A DNA stretch of 64,000 nt, from assembly GCA_000002435.2 (NCBI GenBank), contig CM018790.1, one strand, 5' to 3'. Numbering within the stretch: position 1 is the stretch's first letter; each line of letters starts with the position of its first letter. The notes beneath the pieces were generated by a model. That model did no database searches and was not told where the DNA came from. It was given only the letters and a program-made list of their open reading frames with translations. Positions 23,478 to 44,593 of the stretch are shown here, piece by piece. A program made the translations under genes and the position numbers. Source of the stretch: Giardia intestinalis (lineage: Eukaryota).

Positions 23478-25922
23478 TCAAATGGTCTCAGTGTTAGACA
23501 GTGATGTAGTTATATGTTGTCTTGCACCTTCTTTATAGCGAACAATCAGAATAACTACAATCCAAAGAATAATTAGAGAAAGCATAATAATAAAGAGCGC
23601 CAAGCTTGATGAAGCTGCCGGCGATATGATACTTTTGCGTGGCTCTTGAATACACGTCGACACAGTATCTTCCGTAGGAGTCAAGATGTACCCTTTGCTG
23701 CACGCTGTACATTGAATGCTGTCGTGTGAAGCAGTGCTTTTCAGAACTGCACAGCCTGTACATCCTTGCGGGCAGGTGGTCATGAAGCTTGTAAGGGTAT
23801 TAAAGTAATATCCACGCTGTGGCTTAGAACATGTCCTTGGGCCTTCACAAATCAAACAGTGAGGCATGCATTGCATAACTCTGGAGGTCAATGCGTCCAA
23901 GTAGTATCCCTTTGCTGCCTGTAAGCAATCTGTATCCTTTTCTCCCTTACAGGAGTCACAATTGTTTGTACATTTTATGCAGGCACCAGATCCCGTGAAA
24001 CTGGAATATCCACGCATACACTTTTCGCAGACAGTTGTGTTACTGCAAAGAATACAGTTATCTATGCACGGGCTACAGATTCCAGCCAGTTTATCTGCCA
24101 TGAAGCTACCGGGAAGACATTCGGTGCACCTATTCTCGGCATCGCAAGTCTTACAGTTATCTGGGCAGCGGTAGCACTTAAGGTCCTCCATTCTGTATCC
24201 CGGAACGCAAACACCGCAGGTCTCAGGTGTTGAACACTTTAGACAATTAACTGGACACGGAGAACAGCTTCCTTCAGCAGTACGATAGTTATAGTCCTTG
24301 CATTCGTGGCAAAAGTCTCTCTTAAAGCATCGCTTACAGTTTGCTGGGCACGGTATACATATACCATCAATAAGAATACTCCCATCAGCACATTGAAGAC
24401 ATATACCCTCTGAGGTGCAACTAGCACAATTTGCCACAAAACTAGAACAGAGCACGCATGTGACAGAGTCAGCAGCCTGCAAAGTGATAGCACTCTCCAT
24501 ACAGGCAGTGCATTGACCAGTATTCGTGCAAGTTTGGCAACCTGTGATTGCCGTGCACGGTGGGCACTTACCTTCCTTGAGATAATGTCCTTCACTACAA
24601 ACGTTGCATATACCAGGATTGCTAGCAAAGCACTGAACGCAATTGGAAACGTAACAATCTGGGTACTTCACGCATACATTGCTGGAAAGATAGTAGTCAT
24701 CAGCACACGCTTCGCAGATGGCACGCCCGGTCCTTGAGCAGCGAATGCAACCCATCAGCAACGTGCCAGAGCATGTCGCGTGCTCACATATTGTACCAGA
24801 ATGTCCATCGAGGCATGTTTGGCAAGAGTATTGGCTTGAGCAGGTTCGACAATTGATGGGACAGACAAGGCAGGAACCGCCGTCAAGATAGTACCCTTCC
24901 TTGCATGCTGCACACATTCCGGAGTTGGTTGTAGAGCAGGACGTACAGTAGTCTTGTGGGGTACCGTCACACATGAGAGTCATGCACTCGTACCCAACGT
25001 AATTTGTCGGGCATGGAACGCATCCAGCACCATCAAGCCTATAGTCATCTTGGCACTCCATGCAGTAGTTGCTGAGGGCTGTGTTGCTACACTTTGCGCA
25101 GTAATCGCGAGATACCCCATAACACTTGATGCTTCTGCAATTAATCCCCGTTCGTCCGTTGGGACAAGGGATGCATTTATTGTCTTCACGCAGATAGTAG
25201 TCATTTTTGCAGATCGTGCAAGTGAGGGTGTCCTTATTGCATTCCGTACAATAAGGTAGAATTGCCTTGTTCCCGTTTGATTCGCACACAAGATCAGCAC
25301 AATTAATCCCTGTATATGGCGCAGCACACGGGACGCAATGTCTATTAAAAGCACCGCCCCAGTAATATCCAGGAAAGCACTCAGCACAGTATTCGCTAGT
25401 GAGTCCGCCACACTTGTTGCAATACTGATAGGAATACAGGCTGTTACAATAAAGGACCGTGCAATTCTCGCCGCTGAAAGACCCTGTACAAGGCTTGCAC
25501 CCGGTAGTGGTCAGGTAGAAGTTTGTGTTGCAGCTTGCGCATTCGCTTTTGCCATCGACACATGCTTTGCAGTTGCGGAAAACCTTGTTGTTGCATAACC
25601 GGTCCATACAGTTCATGCCTATTGAGTCGTCTGGACATGGTGCACAGCTTCCTCCAGAAAGTTGATAGTTGGCTTGGCATTCCGTACAAGAGTTGCCACT
25701 GCACGTCTTGCAATACCTTACAGAAGTCGTCCCACAAGTTAGATACTCACAGTTCTCCCCGGTCCGACCGCCCATGCATGGGGTACAAGCCCCTCTAAAA
25801 TCTGGAGCAAATCCGTCGCTGCAACGGATGCACTGCTCCGTACTTGCCGGGCACTGTAAGCAGTGCGCATCGGTGCACTGTGCAGTGAGGCTGGTCAAAA
25901 GGTGTAAAGTCAAGAGCACCAT
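23478..25922 (-). CDS. High-cysteine membrane protein (HCMP; VSP-like, lacking the CRGKA tail).
   Basis: An N-terminal signal peptide MVLLTLHLLTSLTAQC is followed by about 750 aa dominated by CxxC/CxC repeats. The C-terminus has a single TM (LALFIIMLSLIILWIVVILIV) and a 20-aa tail RYKEGARQHITTSLSNTETI. The ATG start follows tagcttaataaattcATG. Confidence 0.8.
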   Translation of the reverse strand: MVLLTLHLLTSLTAQCTDAHCLQCPASTEQCIRCSDGFAPDFRGACTPCMGGRTGENCEYLTCGTTSVRYCKTCSGNSCTECQANYQLSGGSCAPCPDDSIGMNCMDRLCNNKVFRNCKACVDGKSECASCNTNFYLTTTGCKPCTGSFSGENCTVLYCNSLYSYQYCNKCGGLTSEYCAECFPGYYWGGAFNRHCVPCAAPYTGINCADLVCESNGNKAILPYCTECNKDTLTCTICKNDYYLREDNKCIPCPNGRTGINCRSIKCYGVSRDYCAKCSNTALSNYCMECQDDYRLDGAGCVPCPTNYVGYECMTLMCDGTPQDYCTSCSTTNSGMCAACKEGYYLDGGSCLVCPINCRTCSSQYSCQTCLDGHSGTICEHATCSGTLLMGCIRCSRTGRAICEACADDYYLSSNVCVKYPDCYVSNCVQCFASNPGICNVCSEGHYLKEGKCPPCTAITGCQTCTNTGQCTACMESAITLQAADSVTCVLCSSFVANCASCTSEGICLQCADGSILIDGICIPCPANCKRCFKRDFCHECKDYNYRTAEGSCSPCPVNCLKCSTPETCGVCVPGYRMEDLKCYRCPDNCKTCDAENRCTECLPGSFMADKLAGICSPCIDNCILCSNTTVCEKCMRGYSSFTGSGACIKCTNNCDSCKGEKDTDCLQAAKGYYLDALTSRVMQCMPHCLICEGPRTCSKPQRGYYFNTLTSFMTTCPQGCTGCAVLKSTASHDSIQCTACSKGYILTPTEDTVSTCIQEPRKSIISPAASSSLALFIIMLSLIILWIVVILIVRYKEGARQHITTSLSNTETI

Positions 25923-33970: not shown

Positions 33971-34735
33971 CGAACGTTGACCCGTAATGGCTTCCTTAGG
34001 TATATTGCCTATTGGAATTATCTGTGTGTCAGTTGGATGGTAAATGCTCGGCGGTCAATCCCTCGTCTAAAAGCCCGTTAATAGAAAGCCAAAAGAGGTA
34101 AGAAGTTGAATAGTTGGCAGGAATGCGTACCCTTTTGGCAGTTTCGTAGAGCGTGATAGGAGAGGAAATTGTTCTACCTTCGATCCGCTGGGCTAGTTTC
34201 CAGTAATCTTGAAGTATAGTGCCGCCGAGCTACAAACATACTCTTCCTAAATGGAGTTCTTTGTTCGAGTAATGGATAACGACAAATTCGCCTGGAAGGA
34301 AAACACCGTTACTCGTGTCAAAGAAAGTCATTTTCTTTTTTTGGTACTAACGGTGATCATAATAGTGCCTCTAACTCAGAGATAAGCCACTATGATATCT
34401 ACTGGAGTATTACTAGCTTAATTACGAGCATACTATTAGATATCTCTTGGCAGAAAGAGGCTGTCGCTTGTCAGTAGAAAAATAAGGAGGAAGGTTTATT
34501 TTCTCGAATTATCTGCGTAATTCTAGCGAGTTTTGTGTCTGTCGCCACTGAGCTTGTTGACTAGGTAGTCAATATAAGGCATGTTAGGTGCCATACATTG
34601 TTATCATGAGTTTTGGGCTGATTTCATCAATCTGATAGCGAATGACCTGTACATGTAATACACTGATATAGCTGCTTCACTATAGCCCAGGATGAAGAAT
34701 TAGACGCAGGGTTTTGCCGAGACATGTAGGCAAGC

Positions 34736-35988
34736 GCGCGGGGACGCCTGTCTGCAGGGGGCCGCAGCCCCAGGCGTCTCATCCCGGGCGCCGCACGCTG
34801 CACCCCTGGACTCGGTCCCTCGGGGCCCTGAGCATGCCTCCACACTGCGCGGGACAGAACCTGCTCACCAGGAGCTGAGGAGATGCCCCGCTCAGTGCCC
34901 ATGCCGACGACACATCCATCTTCCATAGTAGCAACAGTGACGCGACGGGGGTAGTCACAGAGGCGGCAGGCCTGGCGAAGCGATTGGCTCGACGGTCAAC
35001 ACTGACAAGTATAGGAACACAGAGGGGCAGGAGGCCTCCTTCCTGGCCGGTCGAAGGAGCTCCCAGGGCAACGGAGGGCCGAAGCTAGTGATGGCACTAA
35101 TCACTCGCCGTGCTGGTTGAGACGGACCCACACGCAACCCATGTGAATCCCTCGACAAGAGATGGGGCCCCTGGGGTGCTTGGCTGACAGAGGCGGACTG
35201 ATCCTGCCCACACCGGAGAGCGGTGACCTGGGCCACCTGCCGGGCGTCTGCCGCAGCAGCTGGCAGTGCCTGACACCCTCGAGTGGACAGGCGCCGGTTG
35301 TAGAGAGACGACCTCGATGAACCGGTCCTGACCGCTCCTGGTGCCTCAGACGACGCCTCTCAGAGAGGTGGCCCTGGACCGACGCCTCGGTGGACCGAAG
35401 CATCACCCAAGTGTGCTGTGCAGATGGACCAGCCCACACGTCACCGAGCCAGACGCACTGCACAGGGTGAGCGCCGACATGATCTCGTGCTGGGTGACGG
35501 ACCACCTGCAAGAGTGCACTGCGATCCATGAGTAGGAGGGCAAACCAGGGCCGGACCTCTCCCCCGACACAACGCATGGGAGTACTCTGCCGGCATCCGC
35601 GAACGCGTACTATGACTCCAAGATAGAGGCGCACGGGGAGCGCATCCTTGATAATGGAACAGATGGTGCCCTCCACGAGAAGATGAAGAGGCACCCCGAG
35701 GAACGAGGTAGGCACCCGGGGTCGTGGCGTATCCTATCTTCGTCATGAAGCATCAGCACCACAAAGCTACTCCGGAGTACATGGCCAGAGTCAATTGCTC
35801 TCGAGACTAGATCGCTGTGACCGACACAAGGCCCGAGACAACGGATGCTCAATAGATGTCAGACGATGGTTGACCCCGACGGGCCAGAGAGAAGAGACGC
35901 CCCGGAGCATATAGTGGAGCACCCAACGGCTCCCAGGCGGGATGCACAAGGCTCTTCTCCAGAGTGGGCGGCATCCGAGCTTCGGACT
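34736..35988. repeat. Left arm of a ~1.25-kb GC-rich inverted repeat. It is the reverse complement of 43168-44421.
   Basis: Six-frame ORFs inside it have near-identical counterparts on the opposite strand of the right arm:
- 35101-35715(-) = 43441-44055(+), identical 204-aa translation
- 35441-35746(-) = 43410-43715(+), identical
- 34955-35236(-) = 43920-44201(+), identical
- 35610-35852(-) = 43304-43546(+), identical
- 35845-36093(+) vs 42943-43311(-): one difference (H vs R) across the 47 aa shared before the arm boundary
- 34627-34926(-) vs 44230-44439(+): identical for 64 aa, then they diverge, which marks the repeat end
The arm is GC-rich, and its Arg/Pro/Gly-rich pseudo-ORFs do not look coding. 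Confidence 0.85.
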
Positions 35989-35998
35989 CTGGACGGGT

Positions 35999-38166
35999 TT
36001 ACTCGGACAGGAGCTGGCAAGCCGACCTTGATGAAGAAGAGCAGATCTCGTTTGAGAAGATGTCTACTATCTCTTTGCGATCCTTCTTCTTAGCGATATT
36101 GAGGGCAGTGGTACCAGGCGAGTGACCATGGCAGCTGCAGGTTGTCTTCAGATATTTCTCGTTTTCTTTAGGAAGTCTTGTACATTCCACGGTGTTGCTA
36201 TATGCTGCGTTCATAAGGGCGATCCCCCTTGGTCGTTTGCATGCCGCCTTCGCCCTTCAGCAGGGGCCTGACACACTCTGGATGGCCATTGCACACCGTC
36301 CATGTGAGGACAGTCTGATGCTCGTTGTTCTTTATACGAGCTTCTTGCTTGAGCAGCTCTACACTCCCTTCGTGCCCTCGTGCTGCTGCATACATGAGCT
36401 CCGTCCACCCTGAGATACTGCTCTCATACTCCATCAAAAGCTCAACGTGCCCAATATAGTCCACCAGGGGGTCATTGGAACGATTGCACCGTGCCGCGAA
36501 TACGAGAGCGGTCCAACCGCCTACTTTCTCTCCCTTTTCGTGTTCCACTAGCAGTTCTACTATTTCTGCGTATCCATTGCCGCAGCCACCATCAGAGCTG
36601 TTCCTTTGCGCATGTACCATCCGCTTCTTGTGACCTCTTTGTATGTTTTCCTCCCCCTCTGGATGGGTAAGAGTGCTTTTACAGCCCCCGCGTCGTTTCT
36701 ATTGACAGCTCGCATGAGCGCCGTGACGCCGTTCTCATCGGTTGGGTCGATGGCCTCCACCACGGTTCCATGTCCTGCCTCTGCCGCAATCACCAAGGCC
36801 GTCTTGCCTTCGCTGCCGATCCGGTCCTTCTCATATGGGACCAGAAGGGAGGCAGCTCTTGCATAGTCCTCCTCTGTGGCGATCATCAGGTAGTCCAGCC
36901 ATTCTTGTCCTGGAGGCCCCTCTCCTCCCCAACAAGCAACTCGACGGGACTGACGTGCCCCTGCTCGTCGCGCTGACCAACGCCGAGTCTTTCTTCAAGC
37001 AGCATCCAGACGGTCTCCGTGCTATTTGTGTGCAGCACGCATCAGCCCGGGCAACAAAAAGAGGCTGGACTGAGGGTCAGTCGTGTTCATCCTGTCACCG
37101 AACTGTGCAAGCCTATTCTCCAGTGCCTTACTCATGGCTAGATGCTCCTTACCTTGGTCTTCAAGTGCGTCGATCTTAGTAGATCTAGTCTTAACATCCT
37201 CTTCCAGCAACGCGATCCTGGCGTTAGCGCCATTCAGCGCAGCCTCCAAGGATCCGCACTTATACTTCAGCATCACGCACTGACCTCCCAACTCACCAAC
37301 TGGGATGTCGAATGTAGCGAGCGTCTCGTGCAGCTCCCTGGCCGTCGGCCTCCTCTCTGGCTCCAATACGAATATCCGCTCCAGAACACTCTTTATGAAG
37401 CCATCAGTGACACCGCTCAGGTCCGGCCTCCACCCATCGATGAAGACCTCTGCTGGCTCCTTGCCCCCCAAGAAGTCCGGTCTCCTCAGAGTAGTAAGTT
37501 CATAAATGATGACCCCGAGGCTCCATACATCAGAAGCGGGGCTGGCCTCATTACGGAGGAGCGCCTCGGGGGCCATGTATACTGCCGTGCCTGCAATGGT
37601 GCTCCCGCATCTCAGGGCGTCCTTACAGAGGCCGAAGTCGGCGATGACGAAGCGCTCTCCGTCTGCGCTGATGAGGACGTTGGCAGGCTTGAGGTCGCGG
37701 TGGACGAGGCCCTTAGCACCTACCCCACTAAGGCCGTGGAGGTAGGCGAGGGCGGCGGCGACCTGCTTCATGACAGAGAGGATCATAGCGATAGGGACGG
37801 GGATCTTCCTTCGTTTGTGCTCGGTGAGGAGGTTGTCAAGAGTCCTGCTGTGCCGGTCCGTGACGACGTAGATGAGGCCCTCGTCTTCAATCACTTGATG
37901 ATACTTGAGGACCCGGGTGAAAGATGTTAAGAAGGGCGGCCAGCCTACGCTTAATAGCATCCACACCGTGCTGATCCAGACCGTCGAGCCGGATCTCCTT
38001 CACAGCAAGGTGGGGGCATCCCCTGAGAGAGTAGATAACACTGAAGGCCCCCGCTGAGCACGGGGATGCCACCAGCGCCCATCGGCTCTGCAAAGCCGCT
38101 AACTGCACTGTTACTAGCAACTCCTAGGGCGCCCTCTGCGGTGGCTGGGACAGGGAGTGGAGTCAA
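35999..38166 (-). pseudogene. NEK-family Ser/Thr kinase fused to ankyrin repeats (Protein 21.1-like). It is fragmented by several frameshifts.
   Basis: The parts found, all on the minus strand but in different frames:
- glycine loop and VAIK region: AGAFSVIYSLRG...HLAVKEI, in ORF 37887-38120(-)
- intact catalytic core: LVHRDLKPANVLISADGERFVIADFGLCKD...APE, in 37022-37966(-)
- three consecutive ankyrin-repeat ORFs: 36560-36886(-), 36198-36620(-), 35999-36214(-), with TALVIAAEAGH and TALMRAVNRND motifs
That makes at least four frame changes, and the 3' end abuts the left inverted-repeat arm. Indel-type assembly errors in GC-rich homopolymer runs are the alternative explanation. Confidence 0.55.
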
Positions 38167-38754
38167 CAGCCGCAGCTGATTTTAACTGCAATCCGGAGCC
38201 ATCCTTTGGAGTGGCCTTGGCTACTACCCGAGCAAGGCGCCCAGTGTGAGCTGTCGATGGCAGGCCAAGGAGAGGCATACTAACGGCTTGTATGGCCTTA
38301 AGCAGGCCGGATCCTGGAGGCCGACGCGGAGTGCCCCAGACAGAGTATGCCGATCAGGGACCACACTGAGCTCTGGATGCATCACTAGGGAGAACTCTCG
38401 TCATGTTATCCACAACCAGCCATCGTCTCCGGACGGTCGAGAAGTAGGCGCGGCTTACCCATGAGACCTCTGAGCGCACCTGCAGGCGGGGTCAGTGATA
38501 CAGTGACAGCAATGTACAGGAGTGCGCCCCGAGCAATCACTCCACAAGAGAGGTGCGGTCTGAGTCTGGCCCTCACTGGTCCTGTTCCTATGGAAGTCAG
38601 AGAGAACTACACTATCAGCTGGCCTCTGGTTGGTGTGCTCCTATCTCGTCCTTCTCCGGTCCAACTGATCAAGAGAGCAAGAGCGGCTGTCTCTCACTGC
38701 TCGCGGTCAATGCACAAGTCTGATGAAAGAGCAGTGGCACGTGTACTCCGGCTA

Positions 38755-41700
38755 ATGTTGGTAGGATTTCTCCTAGTTTGTGCAACAGTGCTGGCAAAGG
38801 ACAGTGGGAAGACCGCGCAGTGTGACGGAGACAATGGCTACACGCTCCAGGGCGACGCGTGCACCAAGGCGGCTCCTGACAACGCGTGCCAGACCCTGGG
38901 AACCGCCGGGTGTGCCACGTGCGACTCGGGTAGCGGCGGGGAAACCTGTCTTACATGCAAGAAGGACGCGCAATACGTCGCGGCCAACAAGAAGAGCTGC
39001 AAGGATGCCTGCGACACGAGCGGAGGAGAGGTAATAGACCAGGCTGCCAGCCCGGCGAAGGTCTGCAAGTGTGACGGAGACAATGGCTACACGCTCCAGG
39101 GCGACGCGTGCACCAAGGCGGCTCCTGACAACGCGTGCCAGACCCTGGGAACCGCCGGGTGTGCCACGTGCGACTCGGGTAGCGGCGGGGAAACCTGTCT
39201 TACATGCAAGAAGGACGCGCAATACGTCGCGGCCAACAAGAAGAGCTGCAAGGATGCCTGCGACACGAGCGGAGGAGAGGTAATAGACCAGGCTGCCAGC
39301 CCGGCGAAGGTCTGCAAGTGTGACGGAGACAATGGCTACACGCTCCAGGGCGACGCGTGCACCAAGGCGGCTCCTGACAACGCGTGCCAGACCCTGGGAA
39401 CCGCCGGGTGTGCCACGTGCGACTCGGGTAGCGGCGGGGAAACCTGTCTTACATGCAAGAAGGACGCGCAATACGTCGCGGCCAACAAGAAGAGCTGCAA
39501 GGATGCCTGCGACACGAGCGGAGGAGAGGTAATAGACCAGGCTGCCAGCCCGGCGAAGGTCTGCAAGTGTGACGGAGACAATGGCTACACGCTCCAGGGC
39601 GACGCGTGCACCAAGGCGGCTCCTGACAACGCGTGCCAGACCCTGGGAACCGCCGGGTGTGCCACGTGCGACTCGGGTAGCGGCGGGGAAACCTGTCTTA
39701 CATGCAAGAAGGACGCGCAATACGTCGCGGCCAACAAGAAGAGCTGCAAGGATGCCTGCGACACGAGCGGAGGAGAGGTAATAGACCAGGCTGCCAGCCC
39801 GGCGAAGGTCTGCAAGTGTGACGGAGACAATGGCTACACGCTCCAGGGCGACGCGTGCACCAAGGCGGCTCCTGACAACGCGTGCCAGACCCTGGGAACC
39901 GCCGGGTGTGCCACGTGCGACTCGGGTAGCGGCGGGGAAACCTGTCTTACATGCAAGAAGGACGCGCAATACGTCGCGGCCAACAAGAAGAGCTGCAAGG
40001 ATGCCTGCGACACGAGCGGAGGAGAGGTAATAGACCAGGCTGCCAGCCCGGCGAAGGTCTGCAAGTGTGACGGAGACAATGGCTACACGCTCCAGGGCGA
40101 CGCGTGCACCAAGGCGGCTCCTGACAACGCGTGCCAGACCCTGGGAACCGCCGGGTGTGCCACGTGCGACTCGGGTAGCGGCGGGGAAACCTGTCTTACA
40201 TGCAAGAAGGACGCGCAATACGTCGCGGCCAACAAGAAGAGCTGCAAGGATGCCTGCGACACGAGCGGAGGAGAGGTAATAGACCAGGCTGCCAGCCCGG
40301 CGAAGGTCTGCAAGTGTGACGGAGACAATGGCTACACGCTCCAGGGCGACGCGTGCACCAAGGCGGCTCCTGACAACGCGTGCCAGACCCTGGGAACCGC
40401 CGGGTGTGCCACGTGCGACTCGGGTAGCGGCGGGGAAACCTGTCTTACATGCAAGAAGGACGCGCAATACGTCGCGGCCAACAAGAAGAGCTGCAAGGAT
40501 GCCTGCGACACGAGCGGAGGAGAGGTAATAGACCAGGCTGCCAGCCCGGCGAAGGTCTGCAAGTGTGACGGAGACAATGGCTACACGCTCCAGGGCGACG
40601 CGTGCACCAAGGCGGCTCCTGACAACGCGTGCCAGACCCTGGGAACCGCCGGGTGTGCCACGTGCGACTCGGGTAGCGGCGGGGAAACCTGTCTTACATG
40701 CAAGAAGGACGCGCAATACGTCGCGGCCAACAAGAAGAGCTGCAAGGATGCCTGCGACACGAGCGGAGGAGAGGTAATAGACCAGGCTGCCAGCCCGGCG
40801 AAGGTCTGCAAGTGTGACGGAGACAATGGCTACACGCTCCAGGGCGACGCGTGCACCAAGGCGGCTCCTGACAACGCGTGCCAGACCCTGGGAACCGCCG
40901 GGTGTGCCACGTGCGACTCGGGTAGCGGCGGGGAAACCTGTCTTACATGCAAGAAGGACGCGCAATACGTCGCGGCCAACAAGAAGAGCTGCAAGGATGC
41001 CTGCGACACGAGCGGAGGAGAGGTAATAGACCAGGCTGCCAGCCCGGCGAAGGTCTGCAAGTGTGACGGAGACAATGGCTACACGCTCCAGGGCGACGCG
41101 TGCACCAAGGCGGCTCCTGACAACGCGTGCCAGACCCTGGGAACCGCCGGGTGTGCCACGTGCGACTCGGGTAGCGGCGGGGAAACCTGTCTTACATGCA
41201 AGAAGGACGCGCAATACGTCGCGGCCAACAAGAAGAGCTGCAAGGATGCCTGCGACACGAGCGGAGGAGAGGTAATAGACCAGGCTGCCAGCCCGGCGAA
41301 GGTCTGCAAGTGTGACGGAGACAATGGCTACACGCTCCAGGGCGACGCGTGCACCAAGGCGGCTCCTGACAACGCGTGCCAGACCCTGGGAACCGCCGGG
41401 TGTGCCACGTGCGACTCGGGTAGCGGCGGGGAAACCTGTCTTACATGCAAGAAGGACGCGCAATACGTCGCGGCCAACAAGAAGAGCTGCAAGGATGCCT
41501 GCGACACGAGCGGAGGAGAGGTAATAGACCAGGCTGCCAGCCCGGCGAAGGTCTGCAAGTGTGACGGAGACAATGGCTACACGCTCCAGGGCGACGCGTG
41601 CACCAAGGCGGCTCCTGACAACGCGTGCCAGACCCTGGGAACCGCCGGGTGTGCCACGTGCGACTCGGGTAGCGGCGGGGAAACCTGTCTTACATGCAAG

Positions 41701-42798
41701 AAGGACGCGCAATACGTCGCGGCCAACAAGAAGAGCTGCAAGGATGCCTGCGACACGAGCGGAGGAGAGGTAATAGACCAGGCTGCCAGCCCGGCGAAGG
41801 TCTGCAAGTGTGACGGAGACAATGGCTACACGCTCCAGGGCGACGCGTGCACCAAGGCGGCTCCTGACAACGCGTGCCAGACAGAGAACTGCCAGGAATG
41901 CACTAGCAAAGGCACGGCCAACGAGGTCTGTACAAAGTGTACTTCTACTCATTACTTGACACCAACAAACCAGTGCGTACCTGACTGCGCAGCCATCAGC
42001 GGATACTACGGAGATACTGACAAGAAGTGTAAGCCATGCAGCCTTGAGTGTGCTGAGTGCGTTGGGCCGGCCAACAATCAGTGCAGTGCCTGTCCTGCTG
42101 GCAAGAAACTGACATATACAGATGACAGCCATCCTAATAACGGAGGCGCCTGCGGGGATGCGTGCAAAGTGTCTGCAGATGGCACTGGCTGTGAGACATG
42201 TGGGGCCCAAATAGGAGGAACTGCATACTGCTCAAAGTGCAAGACCTCTACTCAGGCCCCCTTGAACGGCAACTGTGCGGCCAATTCACGAGCAGCCTTC
42301 TGTGCAACAATCACAAATGGGGCCTGTACACAATGCAATGAGGGTTACTTCCTCAAGGACGGCGGCTGCTATCAGACAGATAGACAGCCTGGTAAGCAGG
42401 TGTGTAGTAGTGCACAGGGAGGAACATGTCAGACGTGTGCCAACGGACTGCAGGCACAAGGTGGGGCCTGTGGGGAGTGCCATTCTACTTGTGCTACGTG
42501 CTCGACTGCAGGTGCGGCTGATAAGTGTAAGACCTGTGCCACTGGGTATTACAAGACAAGCGATAGTGATGGCCCGTGCATGAAGTGCTCAGAGAAGATC
42601 TCCGGATGCAAGCAATGTGTGTCGTCATCTGGCAGCTCAGTCATATGTTTAGAATCAGAAGTAGGCACTGGTGGAAGCGTCAACAAGAGTGGCCTCTCCA
42701 CGGGGGCCATAGCCGGTATCGCTGTTGCTGTGATTGTTGTTGTAGGTGGTCTTGTTGGTTTCTTGTGTTGGTGGTTCCTGTGCAGAGGAAAGGCGTAG
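38755..42798 (+). CDS. Variant-specific surface protein (VSP) with 12.3 identical 83-aa tandem repeats.
   Basis: The C-terminus is a TM helix plus the canonical tail ...GLVGFLCWWFLCRGKA*. The protein is CXXC-rich throughout. The signal peptide MLVGFLLVCATVLA begins at the ATG at 38755. The track ORF extends a further 98 codons upstream, to 38461, with no signal-like sequence. An AGTAAAC poly(A) signal lies 13 nt past the stop. Confidence 0.9.
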   Translation: MLVGFLLVCATVLAKDSGKTAQCDGDNGYTLQGDACTKAAPDNACQTLGTAGCATCDSGSGGETCLTCKKDAQYVAANKKSCKDACDTSGGEVIDQAASPAKVCKCDGDNGYTLQGDACTKAAPDNACQTLGTAGCATCDSGSGGETCLTCKKDAQYVAANKKSCKDACDTSGGEVIDQAASPAKVCKCDGDNGYTLQGDACTKAAPDNACQTLGTAGCATCDSGSGGETCLTCKKDAQYVAANKKSCKDACDTSGGEVIDQAASPAKVCKCDGDNGYTLQGDACTKAAPDNACQTLGTAGCATCDSGSGGETCLTCKKDAQYVAANKKSCKDACDTSGGEVIDQAASPAKVCKCDGDNGYTLQGDACTKAAPDNACQTLGTAGCATCDSGSGGETCLTCKKDAQYVAANKKSCKDACDTSGGEVIDQAASPAKVCKCDGDNGYTLQGDACTKAAPDNACQTLGTAGCATCDSGSGGETCLTCKKDAQYVAANKKSCKDACDTSGGEVIDQAASPAKVCKCDGDNGYTLQGDACTKAAPDNACQTLGTAGCATCDSGSGGETCLTCKKDAQYVAANKKSCKDACDTSGGEVIDQAASPAKVCKCDGDNGYTLQGDACTKAAPDNACQTLGTAGCATCDSGSGGETCLTCKKDAQYVAANKKSCKDACDTSGGEVIDQAASPAKVCKCDGDNGYTLQGDACTKAAPDNACQTLGTAGCATCDSGSGGETCLTCKKDAQYVAANKKSCKDACDTSGGEVIDQAASPAKVCKCDGDNGYTLQGDACTKAAPDNACQTLGTAGCATCDSGSGGETCLTCKKDAQYVAANKKSCKDACDTSGGEVIDQAASPAKVCKCDGDNGYTLQGDACTKAAPDNACQTLGTAGCATCDSGSGGETCLTCKKDAQYVAANKKSCKDACDTSGGEVIDQAASPAKVCKCDGDNGYTLQGDACTKAAPDNACQTLGTAGCATCDSGSGGETCLTCKKDAQYVAANKKSCKDACDTSGGEVIDQAASPAKVCKCDGDNGYTLQGDACTKAAPDNACQTENCQECTSKGTANEVCTKCTSTHYLTPTNQCVPDCAAISGYYGDTDKKCKPCSLECAECVGPANNQCSACPAGKKLTYTDDSHPNNGGACGDACKVSADGTGCETCGAQIGGTAYCSKCKTSTQAPLNGNCAANSRAAFCATITNGACTQCNEGYFLKDGGCYQTDRQPGKQVCSSAQGGTCQTCANGLQAQGGACGECHSTCATCSTAGAADKCKTCATGYYKTSDSDGPCMKCSEKISGCKQCVSSSGSSVICLESEVGTGGSVNKSGLSTGAIAGIAVAVIVVVGGLVGFLCWWFLCRGKA
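38821..41882 (+). repeat. 249-bp tandem repeat array inside the VSP coding sequence: 12 complete copies plus a 74-bp partial copy, all apparently identical.
   Basis: tgtgacggagacaatggc recurs at 38821, 39070, 39319 and so on to 41809, exactly 249 nt apart. Every off-frame and antisense ORF in the track repeats with identical translation at a 249-nt period. The repeat unit encodes CKCDGDNGYTLQGDACTKAAPDNACQTLGTAGCATCDSGSGGETCLTCKKDAQYVAANKKSCKDACDTSGGEVIDQAASPAKV. Confidence 0.9.
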
Positions 42799-42810
42799 AT
42801 GTACTTAGAT

Positions 42811-42817
42811 AGTAAAC
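42811..42817 (+). promoter_or_regulatory. Giardia polyadenylation signal AGTAAAC downstream of the VSP stop codon.
   Basis: The sequence is aggcgTAGatgtacttagatAGTAAACacg. AGTRAAY is the established Giardia poly(A) signal. VSP genes characteristically carry it within about 20 nt of the stop. Confidence 0.5.
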
Positions 42818-43167
42818 ACGTCACTAGTGGTGCAGCTGCCGACAAGCGGGTGCGCCTTATGTACGTTGCTAGCCTGCAACCGGGAGAAGGGGTGGCCGCT
42901 TCCCTGCCCCCGAGCGTGCTCTGCACAGCGCCGTTGACACCGTCATGGCCGAGAACGGTGCACTCGATATCCTGCGCCTGCCGATGAGCTGCATCGATGC
43001 GAGGAGAGCAGCCCAGCTCCACAGCTCGTCTGCTTCTGATGGGATCTATTAGCACGCGTAGGCAGCCCGAACAGTCTTATTTTTGCTTCGGCGAACTGGG
43101 CAAGATCGGAGTTTAATGGCAGTTGAGGCAAGTGAAGGCAGGCCCCTTGCTCCCAGGCAGTGTTCAG

Positions 43168-44421
43168 AGTCCGAAGCTCGGATGCCGCCCACTCTGGAGA
43201 AGAGCCTTGTGCATCCCGCCTGGGAGCCGTTGGGTGCTCCACTATGCGCTCCGGGGCGTCTCTTCTCTCTGGCCCGTCGGGGTCAACCATCGTCTGACAT
43301 CTATTGAGCATCCGTTGTCTCGGGCCTTGTGTCGGTCACAGCGATCTAGTCTCGAGAGCAATTGACTCTGGCCATGTACTCCGGAGTAGCTTTGTGGTGC
43401 TGATGCTTCATGACGAAGATAGGATACGCCACGACCCCGGGTGCCTACCTCGTTCCTCGGGGTGCCTCTTCATCTTCTCGTGGAGGGCACCATCTGTTCC
43501 ATTATCAAGGATGCGCTCCCCGTGCGCCTCTATCTTGGAGTCATAGTACGCGTTCGCGGATGCCGGCAGAGTACTCCCATGCGTTGTGTCGGGGGAGAGG
43601 TCCGGCCCTGGTTTGCCCTCCTACTCATGGATCGCAGTGCACTCTTGCAGGTGGTCCGTCACCCAGCACGAGATCATGTCGGCGCTCACCCTGTGCAGTG
43701 CGTCTGGCTCGGTGACGTGTGGGCTGGTCCATCTGCACAGCACACTTGGGTGATGCTTCGGTCCACCGAGGCGTCGGTCCAGGGCCACCTCTCTGAGAGG
43801 CGTCGTCTGAGGCACCAGGAGCGGTCAGGACCGGTTCATCGAGGTCGTCTCTCTACAACCGGCGCCTGTCCACTCGAGGGTGTCAGGCACTGCCAGCTGC
43901 TGCGGCAGACGCCCGGCAGGTGGCCCAGGTCACCGCTCTCCGGTGTGGGCAGGATCAGTCCGCCTCTGTCAGCCAAGCACCCCAGGGGCCCCATCTCTTG
44001 TCGAGGGATTCACATGGGTTGCGTGTGGGTCCGTCTCAACCAGCACGGCGAGTGATTAGTGCCATCACTAGCTTCGGCCCTCCGTTGCCCTGGGAGCTCC
44101 TTCGACCGGCCAGGAAGGAGGCCTCCTGCCCCTCTGTGTTCCTATACTTGTCAGTGTTGACCGTCGAGCCAATCGCTTCGCCAGGCCTGCCGCCTCTGTG
44201 ACTACCCCCGTCGCGTCACTGTTGCTACTATGGAAGATGGATGTGTCGTCGGCATGGGCACTGAGCGGGGCATCTCCTCAGCTCCTGGTGAGCAGGTTCT
44301 GTCCCGCGCAGTGTGGAGGCATGCTCAGGGCCCCGAGGGACCGAGTCCAGGGGTGCAGCGTGCGGCGCCCGGGATGAGACGCCTGGGGCTGCGGCCCCCT
44401 GCAGACAGGCGTCCCCGCGCG
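43168..44421. repeat. Right arm of the ~1.25-kb GC-rich inverted repeat. It is the reverse complement of 34736-35988.
   Basis: See the left arm. Identical six-frame translations are found in opposite orientation. The boundaries are set where the paired ORFs 42943-43311(-)/35845-36093(+) and 44230-44439(+)/34627-34926(-) stop being identical. Confidence 0.85.
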
Positions 44422-44593
44422 GGTGCTCACGAACGTTGAAAGAGAATATTTACAGTTGAACCCTCAGCTTACATCAGCGTTCTTCAGGGTAGTCATCTTT
44501 TAATAGAGCATATTATAGAGATATCTACGCATATGACTAGCATGTGACTATAGATAGGACCAATTCAATCCTTTAAAAAGATCATCCTTCAAA

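Follow-up and report, generated by a model that had tools for sequence, protein, structure and literature searches.

A VSP gene of Giardia intestinalis WB with 12.3 identical copies of a 249-bp repeat unit

Repeat array and gene identity

In the window analysed here, a 64-kb stretch of DNA, the gene GL50803_0050345 on chromosome 2 of Giardia intestinalis WB C6 carries a perfect in-frame tandem array of a 249-bp unit. In our assessment, this locus is very probably best explained as an annotated VSP gene with the layout of the vspA6/CRP170 type, in which a module array was amplified and homogenised, and whose product would form the surface coat when expressed. Neither the gene nor its repeat unit is new, since the gene has been annotated and this exact unit tabulated before. 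The features of the locus are listed in Table 1.

Table 1. Features of the GL50803_0050345 locus (positions in the 64-kb window)
Feature	Position	Strand	Remark
VSP gene GL50803_0050345	38755..42798	+	4,044 nt including stop; product 1,347 aa
Conserved 5' flank common to other VSP loci, non-coding	38276..38717	+	tblastn
Initiator TAATGTT, includes ATG at 38755	38753..38759	+	seen in sequence
Signal peptide MLVGFLLVCATVLA	38755..38796	+	leader shared with other VSPs; preprint table
5' unique section ahead of array	38755..38818	+	64 nt
Tandem array, 12.3 identical copies of a 249-bp (83-aa) unit	38819..41882	+	Tandem Repeats Finder and base-by-base check
Non-repeated Cys-rich ectodomain region	41883..42705	+	65-82% identity to many other VSPs
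Transmembrane segment, then cytoplasmic tail CRGKA	42706..42795	+	segment 42706-42780; tail 42781-42795
Extended VSP polyadenylation signal ACTTAGATAGTAAAC	42803..42817	+	starts 5 nt past stop
Antisense ORF, 1,145 codons, not a gene	38773..42210	-	table 11, TTG start

Tandem Repeats Finder reported the array with a period of 249, 12.3 copies, 100% matches, 0% indels and a score of 6128, and it is the sole sizeable tandem array within the window. In a direct base-by-base check, the period held over 3,064 nt, equal to 12.305 copies, and all 12 full units shared a single sequence with zero mismatches. Such perfect periodicity cannot have arisen by chance. The first-pass annotation had called 12.3 identical copies at 38821-41882 and had proposed a repeat-finder run for period, copy number and SNPs between copies; the period, copy number and identity hold, with no SNP between copies, but the array already starts at 38819. 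Its estimate that the array makes up about 3.06 kb of a 4.0-kb gene is likewise correct, corresponding to 75.8% of the CDS and ~78% of the ectodomain. The CxxC and CxC motifs that it had described are also present, CxxC twice (CATC and CLTC) and CxC once (CKC, across the unit junction), although each unit contains 10 Cys, an even number, instead of the 12 that it had counted. The sequence CDGDNGYTLQGDACTK is a possible source of unit-specific tryptic peptides.

The encoded product, with a mass of 134 kDa, is an exact match to XP_037901708.1 / KAE8302141.1 on a 1,539,535-bp WB contig. Counting of its composition gave 163 Cys (12.1%) and 38 CXXC motifs, the same numbers as in the supplements of bioRxiv 10.1101/2022.03.07.483299, where 12 copies of the 249-nt unit are recorded for GL50803_50345 under tandem-repeat motif 12. 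Since no 249-nt repeat appears in the 2010 catalogue, which was based on the Sanger assembly (Adam et al. 2010, PMC2996952), the array was apparently first resolved by the 2020 PacBio assembly, and it represents a clean case of a locus resolved by long reads only. A literature search on the gene ID returned no paper, and the ID is absent from searchable main texts. A look-up of contigs encoding the exact product of this gene or of its chromosome-2 paralogue (P0003) gave no record.

All sequence features tested for an expressible VSP are present in GL50803_0050345. The true start is the ATG at 38755, and its surrounding sequence, given as 'taatgtt' in the S1 table of bioRxiv 10.1101/2022.03.07.483299, belongs to the (T/C)AATGTT initiator class that was defined for one VSP subset by Adam et al. 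2010 (PMC2996952). A longer ORF, 38461-42798, was rejected as the extent of the gene, being an in-frame extension upstream of this ATG. The conserved 5' flank, which is matched at 65-79% translated identity by the N-terminal 'extensions' of three other proteins (P0035, P0044 and P0059; tblastn), adds to this spurious extension. The hydrophobic leader is identical in the VSPs P0004, P0010 and P0049 and nearly so in CRP136, and it has been scored as a signal peptide for this gene (bioRxiv 10.1101/2022.03.07.483299); by both the comparison and the scoring, it is a VSP signal peptide. The protein ends in ...AIAGIAVAVIVVVGGLVGFLCWWFLCRGKA, comprising the transmembrane segment and the invariant CRGKA, whose columns are nearly invariant among 47 aligned VSPs. 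The polyadenylation signal is in place together with the initiator, and TACTTAGATAGTAAACACGT is given as this signal in supplementary file 5 of the same preprint. The Pfam VSP family PF03302 matches with 236 bits, well above its gathering cut-off of 31.4 (E=8.6e-70), and the Cys and CXXC content agrees with the Cys-rich ectodomain of a VSP (about 11-12% Cys, many CXXC). Both annotations, GenBank/RefSeq and the preprint, class the gene as a VSP and not as a pseudo-VSP.

Comparison with other repeat-bearing VSPs

The layout of GL50803_0050345 is that of the vspA6/CRP170 type, with a short leader, identical repeats, a unique Cys-rich region and a conserved anchor. Tandem-repeat VSPs have been characterised by a leader of about 66-99 bp, in-frame repeats of 105-516 bp, a unique region and a conserved 3' end (PMC2996952); here, we found a 64-bp leader section, 12.3 copies of 249 bp and 916 bp of 3' sequence. 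The first-pass annotation had treated repeat-bearing VSPs such as CRP170 as established background, in line with the 30 tandem-repeat vsp genes reported in WB (Adam et al. 2010, PMC2996952), and tandem repeats are found in 36 of 136 WB VSPs.

In comparison with vspA6/CRP170 (vsp67) of G. lamblia WB, the four-part layout is shared (PMC2996952, Figure 1 legend), as are a unique Cys-rich part of about 0.9-1.3 kb and the conserved 3' end with CRGKA. However, the vspA6 unit differs in sequence and measures 195 bp (65 aa), with ~22-25 copies on chromosome 4, compared with 249 bp (83 aa) and 12.3 copies on chromosome 2. CRP136 (GL50803_00103142) possesses nearly the same leader, MLVGFLLVCATVLAKDSGK, in which 2 of the first 57 nt differ, and likewise has a TAATGTT initiator and many short Cys-rich units in a long array, while its 120-bp (40-aa) unit, present in 22-28 copies, is unrelated in sequence. 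The CRP65-like protein O97448 (P0004) has the same leader, 69% overall identity and an N-terminal tandem module with an 'AGCATC...TCLTC' core, but its unit, 76 aa in 4.2 copies, shares only 38% identity with the 83-aa unit. At 63-64% identity, the 83-aa unit is most closely related to the module of P0001 (VSP with INR, G. intestinalis P15, assemblage E) and of the ENA protein P0092. Their module is in the same phase and directly follows the signal peptide, as in GL50803_0050345, although it measures 88 aa and is present in ~2 copies only. These values answer the earlier proposal to compare the unit with known repeat-bearing VSPs.

Because this repeat architecture has been known in VSPs since the 1990s, the gene is real but ordinary, and VSPs with identical units in variable copy number have been described over the same period. 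With the gene in GenBank/RefSeq and its unit in a published supplement, the array has little significance past bookkeeping.

Predicted structure of the repeat unit

An AF2 model of two units together with the C-terminal region reached a mean pLDDT of 86. The strand pattern is identical in both modelled units (E10-16/19-25/49-51/60-63/69-72/75-78, then the same positions +83), which gives the same set of three beta-hairpins per unit, predicted with high confidence. Since each unit is predicted to fold into these same three beta-hairpins, the 83-aa unit is, according to the model, a self-contained structural module. The pLDDT is ~90-96 across the non-repeated ectodomain region (41883-42705), and a helix at model residues 450-471 corresponds to the transmembrane segment.

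The predicted disulfide-rich beta-hairpin ectodomain is similar to furin-like cysteine-rich repeats, the top Foldseek matches being R-spondin Fu1-Fu2 and ErbB Cys-rich domains (probability <=0.99, target TM-score <=0.67). Because no Foldseek match reached E<=0.001, 'furin-like' denotes a weak resemblance only. A sequence search of the PDB detected no relative.

Origin and copy number of the array

Other VSPs contain homologues of the module in 1-3 copies, none of which exceeds 64% identity to the 83-aa unit, whereas the copies within one gene are identical among related VSPs. From this contrast, we reasonably infer that the array has either expanded recently or been homogenised, a pattern that the sequence comparison fits and that agrees with the earlier proposal. 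The array probably derives from an N-terminal VSP module that already existed and was then amplified. By analogy with vspA6 and vspC5, its identity would be maintained and its length changed by unequal exchange between sister chromatids or alleles, or by replication slippage, whereby each gain or loss of one unit would alter the protein by 8.2 kDa.

The copy number and identity of the units derive from one assembly. It could thus be argued that the true number differs, or that the units are slightly diverged and were rendered falsely identical by consensus or polishing. Adam et al. 2010 warn that assembled repeat copy numbers are only approximate (PMC2996952), their Sanger-based list does not contain this repeat, and metagenome scans with the unit junction and an internal 29-mer did not find the unit elsewhere, including any independent contig carrying it. 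In addition, in the polyploid Giardia, the alleles of some other VSPs, namely vspA6 and vspC5, are known to vary in copy number (PMC2996952); therefore, one assembled number may mask others. Nevertheless, we consider an assembly artefact quite improbable. The PacBio reads had an N50 of 12.7 kb, with 10% of reads >20 kb, so that many of them should span the 3.06-kb array with its unique flanks. Furthermore, a later Illumina-based correction altered just 50 SNPs and 85 indels genome-wide, and in other genomes, which were assembled independently, related VSPs as a rule also carry identical intra-gene repeats.

A related proposal is that the four genome copies of WB, as well as other sub-assemblage AI isolates, carry differing numbers of the 249-bp unit, with identity resulting from ongoing inter-allele or inter-nuclear recombination. 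We regard this as speculative and rather unlikely. If true, mitotic or inter-nuclear recombination could be read from the long-unit array, in an organism for which sexuality is a matter of debate. As a copy-number marker, the long identical unit could also be applied to sub-assemblage AI isolates.

Expression and possible function

VSPs as a class are displayed on the trophozoite surface in a mutually exclusive manner, with switching. When this VSP is expressed, GL50803_0050345 would act as a type I surface coat protein of about 133 kDa. Since roughly 78% of its ectodomain would be a rod of 12 identical modules, the host may meet a multivalent and probably immunodominant epitope, by analogy with the vspA6 repeat, which is described as immunodominant in the summary given by PMC2996952.

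Alternatively, the array may be a neutral slippage product in a silent reservoir gene that is rarely or never expressed, and the number of repeats would not be under selection. A literature search by gene ID found no expression data, and WB expresses only one of its 133-136 VSPs at any given time, both of which are compatible with such a silent gene. In contrast, the 4-kb ORF is uninterrupted, and nothing is missing from its initiator, signal peptide, anchor or poly(A) signal. The VSP classification is shared by both annotations, and the unit, which has an even number of Cys, is predicted to form a complete structural module. On balance, a silent reservoir gene seems unlikely, and a VSP that forms the surface coat when expressed is the preferred reading.

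Antisense open reading frame

The first-pass annotation had pointed out a 1145-aa antisense ORF at 38773-42210(-) and regarded it as a product of the array. The ORF does exist, measuring 1,119 aa when counted from the first ATG. It stays open because the 249-bp unit is free of stops in one of its antisense frames only, compared with 12-13 stops in the other two. The ORF is a by-product of the repeat, as had been claimed.

Its length, along with a whole-sequence E-value of 7e-21 for Pfam FPL, might suggest a real protein-coding gene overlapping the VSP. However, this score is the sum of 12 identical weak matches, and because none of them is significant singly, the FPL match is a summed-repeat artefact. 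The openness is due only to the stop-free frame, the listed start is a TTG of the bacterial table, neither ATG-start version was found among about 15 billion proteins, and the VSP homology of the sense strand is overwhelming. The ORF was rejected as a gene on the basis of the FPL artefact, the stop-free frame and its absence from the protein collection, and we see virtually no chance that it encodes a protein. This array cautions against annotating such an antisense ORF and against relying on summed Pfam scores on repeats.

Surrounding locus

A check for positional orthologues showed that the loci of P0001 (P15) and P0002 (DH) are not syntenic with the window. Contigs containing the neighbouring LRR gene end ~0.7-1.2 kb past this gene, and none reaches the VSP. 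In other assemblage-A samples, these short-read contigs end within or at the margin of the right arm of an inverted repeat, and an LRR contig from a more divergent sample ends at a similar distance past the LRR gene. An Rfam scan of 33.9-45.1 kb gave no match to an RNA family. GL50803_0050345 itself lies within a 7.2-kb segment (35995-43161) bracketed by this inverted repeat of 1,265 bp, and the 1.27-kb repeat around the VSP could allow inversion of the segment.

The VSP gene and its product

The VSP (variant-specific surface protein) gene in this region is intact and fully equipped. While the listed open reading frame (ORF) spans 38461-42798, the gene itself starts at ATG 38755, because this ATG lies within the VSP initiator TAATGTT, the leader MLVGFLLVCATVLA comes next, and no other start yields a protein in the public collection. 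The product of 1,347 aa (134 kDa; 163 Cys, 12.1%; 38 CXXC) ends in a hydrophobic segment followed by CRGKA and matches the Pfam VSP family (PF03302, E=8.6e-70). The extended poly(A) signal of VSP genes, ACTTAGATAGTAAAC, starts 5 nt past the stop codon. Among the 120 best homologues listed, practically every one is a Giardia VSP or a close high-cysteine relative, and a near-identical leader is shared with a group of VSPs that includes CRP136, GL50803_00101010 and the CRP65-like O97448 (P0004). The non-coding 5′ flank of ~440 bp is similar to the sequence that precedes VSPs at other loci. When translated, it shows 65-79% identity to N-terminal 'extensions' of the predicted VSPs P0035, P0044 and P0059 from other assemblies; it is therefore upstream sequence common to VSP loci, and some deposited VSP starts are mis-called.

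Coordinates of the features in the window and of arm-like copies on other contigs
Feature	Coordinates	Strand	Remarks
VSP gene	38755-42798	+
VSP 5′ flank	38276-38717		non-coding
Tandem array	38819-41882		period 249 bp, 12.3 copies
Antisense ORF	38773-42210	-	rejected as a gene
Left inverted-repeat arm	34730-35994		arms: 5 mismatches, perfect core ~1,174 bp, 63% G+C
Right inverted-repeat arm	43162-44426
Left arm ORF	35101-35715	-	204 aa
Right arm ORF	43441-44055	+	204 aa
Arm stretches matched elsewhere	34794-35793; 43363-44362
Arm-like copy, contig L001	5453-6433
Arm-like copy, contig L002	6057-7038
Arm-like copy, contig L003	7729-8365
Kinase-ankyrin fragments	35999-38120	-	probable pseudogene
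Kinase ORF	37022-37966
Ank repeats in the fragments	36560-36886; 36198-36620	-
814-aa ORF	23478-25922	-	probable high-cysteine membrane protein
Stretch similar to VSP queries	23652-25877

The tandem array

Tandem Repeats Finder reported the array with 100% matches and no indels (score 6128), and a base-by-base check showed that the period holds over 3,064 nt, in which 12 of 12 complete units are a single sequence, as the first-pass annotation had claimed. In the gene frame, each unit encodes 83 aa with 10 cysteines and not the 12 stated there; its CxxC (CATC and CLTC) and CxC motifs were indeed found, the latter (CKC) being created across the unit junction. The array observation is thus confirmed with a corrected cysteine number. 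About 78% of the ectodomain consists of 12 identical modules of 8.2 kDa apiece. The G+C content of the unit is 63% compared with 49% for the window, and there is no other substantial tandem array within these 64 kb.

The antisense ORF counts 1,145 codons from a TTG (1,119 if read from its first ATG). It is open solely because stop codons are missing from one antisense frame of the unit; the other two antisense frames contain 12-13. Whole-sequence Pfam scores (FPL, E=7e-21; E1_dh, 7e-5) came with no individually significant stretch; the FPL match is a false positive, summed from 12 identical weak matches, none significant singly. Both ATG-start versions are absent from the protein collection. 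The ORF was consequently rejected as a gene, and the earlier advice to leave this by-product of the array unannotated holds.

Prior record and reliability of the assembly

The product is an exact match to KAE8302141.1 / XP_037901708.1, 'VSP [Giardia intestinalis]', from ATCC 50803 / WB clone C6 on a 1,539,535-bp contig. The gene is GL50803_0050345 on NC_051857.1 (chromosome 2), tabulated with 4,044 nt, 1,347 aa, 'taatgtt', 163 Cys, 38 CXXC, the same signal peptide and CRGKA, and the identical 249-nt unit is tandem-repeat motif 12, present 12x (bioRxiv 10.1101/2022.03.07.483299, supplements). The first-pass interpretation was right, but the feature already has an annotation and a catalogue entry. 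Repeats occur in 36 of 136 VSPs in WB (bioRxiv 10.1101/2022.03.07.483299). In the Sanger assembly, Adam et al. 2010 (PMC2996952) listed 30 tandem-repeat vsp genes with units of 105-516 bp in 2 to >20 copies; the 249-nt repeat is absent from that table. None of the old-annotation proteins among the homologues listed exceeds 82% identity to the gene in collapsed form, and its RefSeq accession falls in the new XP_0379 series, from which we infer that the 2020 PacBio assembly (PMC7000408) was the first to resolve it.

Adam et al. 2010 (PMC2996952) cautioned that assembled repeat copy numbers are approximate. That the copy number or identity of this array is an assembly artefact is nevertheless unlikely: the PacBio read N50 is 12.7 kb against a 3.06-kb array with unique flanks, so that many reads should span it, and a later Illumina-based correction altered no more than 50 SNPs and 85 indels across the genome (PMC7000408). 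No independent copy of the unit was found in metagenome scans.

Origin of the repeat module

One unit was compared with homologues by BLASTP, and the module phase was taken from its single-copy relatives. In P0003, a signal peptide is followed by ...AGCAAC...KVCKCDGDNGYTLQGDAC and then CQTENCQEC; in this phase, the array reads as one partial module and 12 full modules, each starting ACQTLGTAGCATC. Two copies each are present in P0092 (ENA; 64% identity to the unit), the P15 VSP P0001 (assemblage E; 63%), P0019 (53-57%) and P0005 (54-55%), one in P0003 (54%) and P0002 (50%), three in P0025 (46-48%) and four in the CRP65-like P0004 (38%). Within each of these relatives, the copies agree completely or almost completely across long exact stretches. 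Since copies are alike within each relative and differ between genes, the module appears to be old and to have undergone independent amplification in several genes and assemblages. Identical copies within the gene, combined with identities of at most 64% between genes, point to recent expansion or continuing homogenisation of the array.

Adam et al. 2010 (PMC2996952) also pointed to alleles of vspA6 and vspC5 that differ in repeat copy number. By analogy with these genes, the repeats are likely immunodominant, and unit copy number may shift via unequal exchange or slippage, which would alter antigen size.

Predicted structure of the modules

An AlphaFold2 model of the last two modules and the remainder of the protein, based on an alignment of 47 sequences, had a mean pLDDT of 86.4 (~78-95 across the two modules). 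The two modules share one pattern of six strands in three hairpins, shifted by exactly 83 residues, and the membrane anchor forms a C-terminal helix. Foldseek against the PDB gave no match at E<=0.001; the best matches above this threshold were R-spondin furin-like repeats (probability 0.99, TM-score relative to target <=0.67), with ErbB cysteine-rich domains also among them. No sequence relatives were found among PDB chains. With its 10 cysteines, each module could in principle satisfy its own disulfides, which would fit a fold that stays intact when modules are gained or lost.

Surroundings of the VSP gene

A 1,265-bp inverted repeat, spotted because its two arm ORFs have identical translations, flanks a 7,167-bp segment that contains the VSP along with a kinase gene in fragments. 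The arms have no Pfam or Rfam match. Their ORF resembles 29 'hypothetical' proteins (DH, WB and ENA assemblies; 42-85% identity), and at the nucleotide level stretches of ~0.65-1 kb on three other contigs are 82-84% identical to the arms; one of these copies, in isolate DH, lies ~3 kb from a VSP. The arms are thus members of a dispersed Giardia repeat family.

Contigs that include the adjacent LRR gene extend ~0.7-1.2 kb beyond it and do not reach the VSP. Short-read contigs from other assemblage-A samples (among L006-L011), which match the neighbouring genes at 98-99% identity, all break off inside the right arm or at its outer edge (window positions 43874 and 44392). Over its final ~530 bp, L006 has just ~84% identity to the arm, and L011, from a sample with an 86%-identical LRR protein, ends at a similar distance beyond the LRR gene. 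The VSP locus marks a break in both assembly and synteny.

The stretch from the left arm to the VSP holds pieces of an ankyrin-repeat-bearing NEK-like kinase, which are spread over several reading frames and oriented head-to-head with the VSP. The kinase ORF lacks the first ~57 Pkinase profile positions, and the fragments are probably a frameshifted pseudogene. Elsewhere in the window, the 814-aa ORF scores 28 bits against the Pfam VSP profile, below the cut-off of 31.4, and 69 VSP queries are similar to this stretch by tblastn; it probably encodes a high-cysteine membrane protein and not a VSP.
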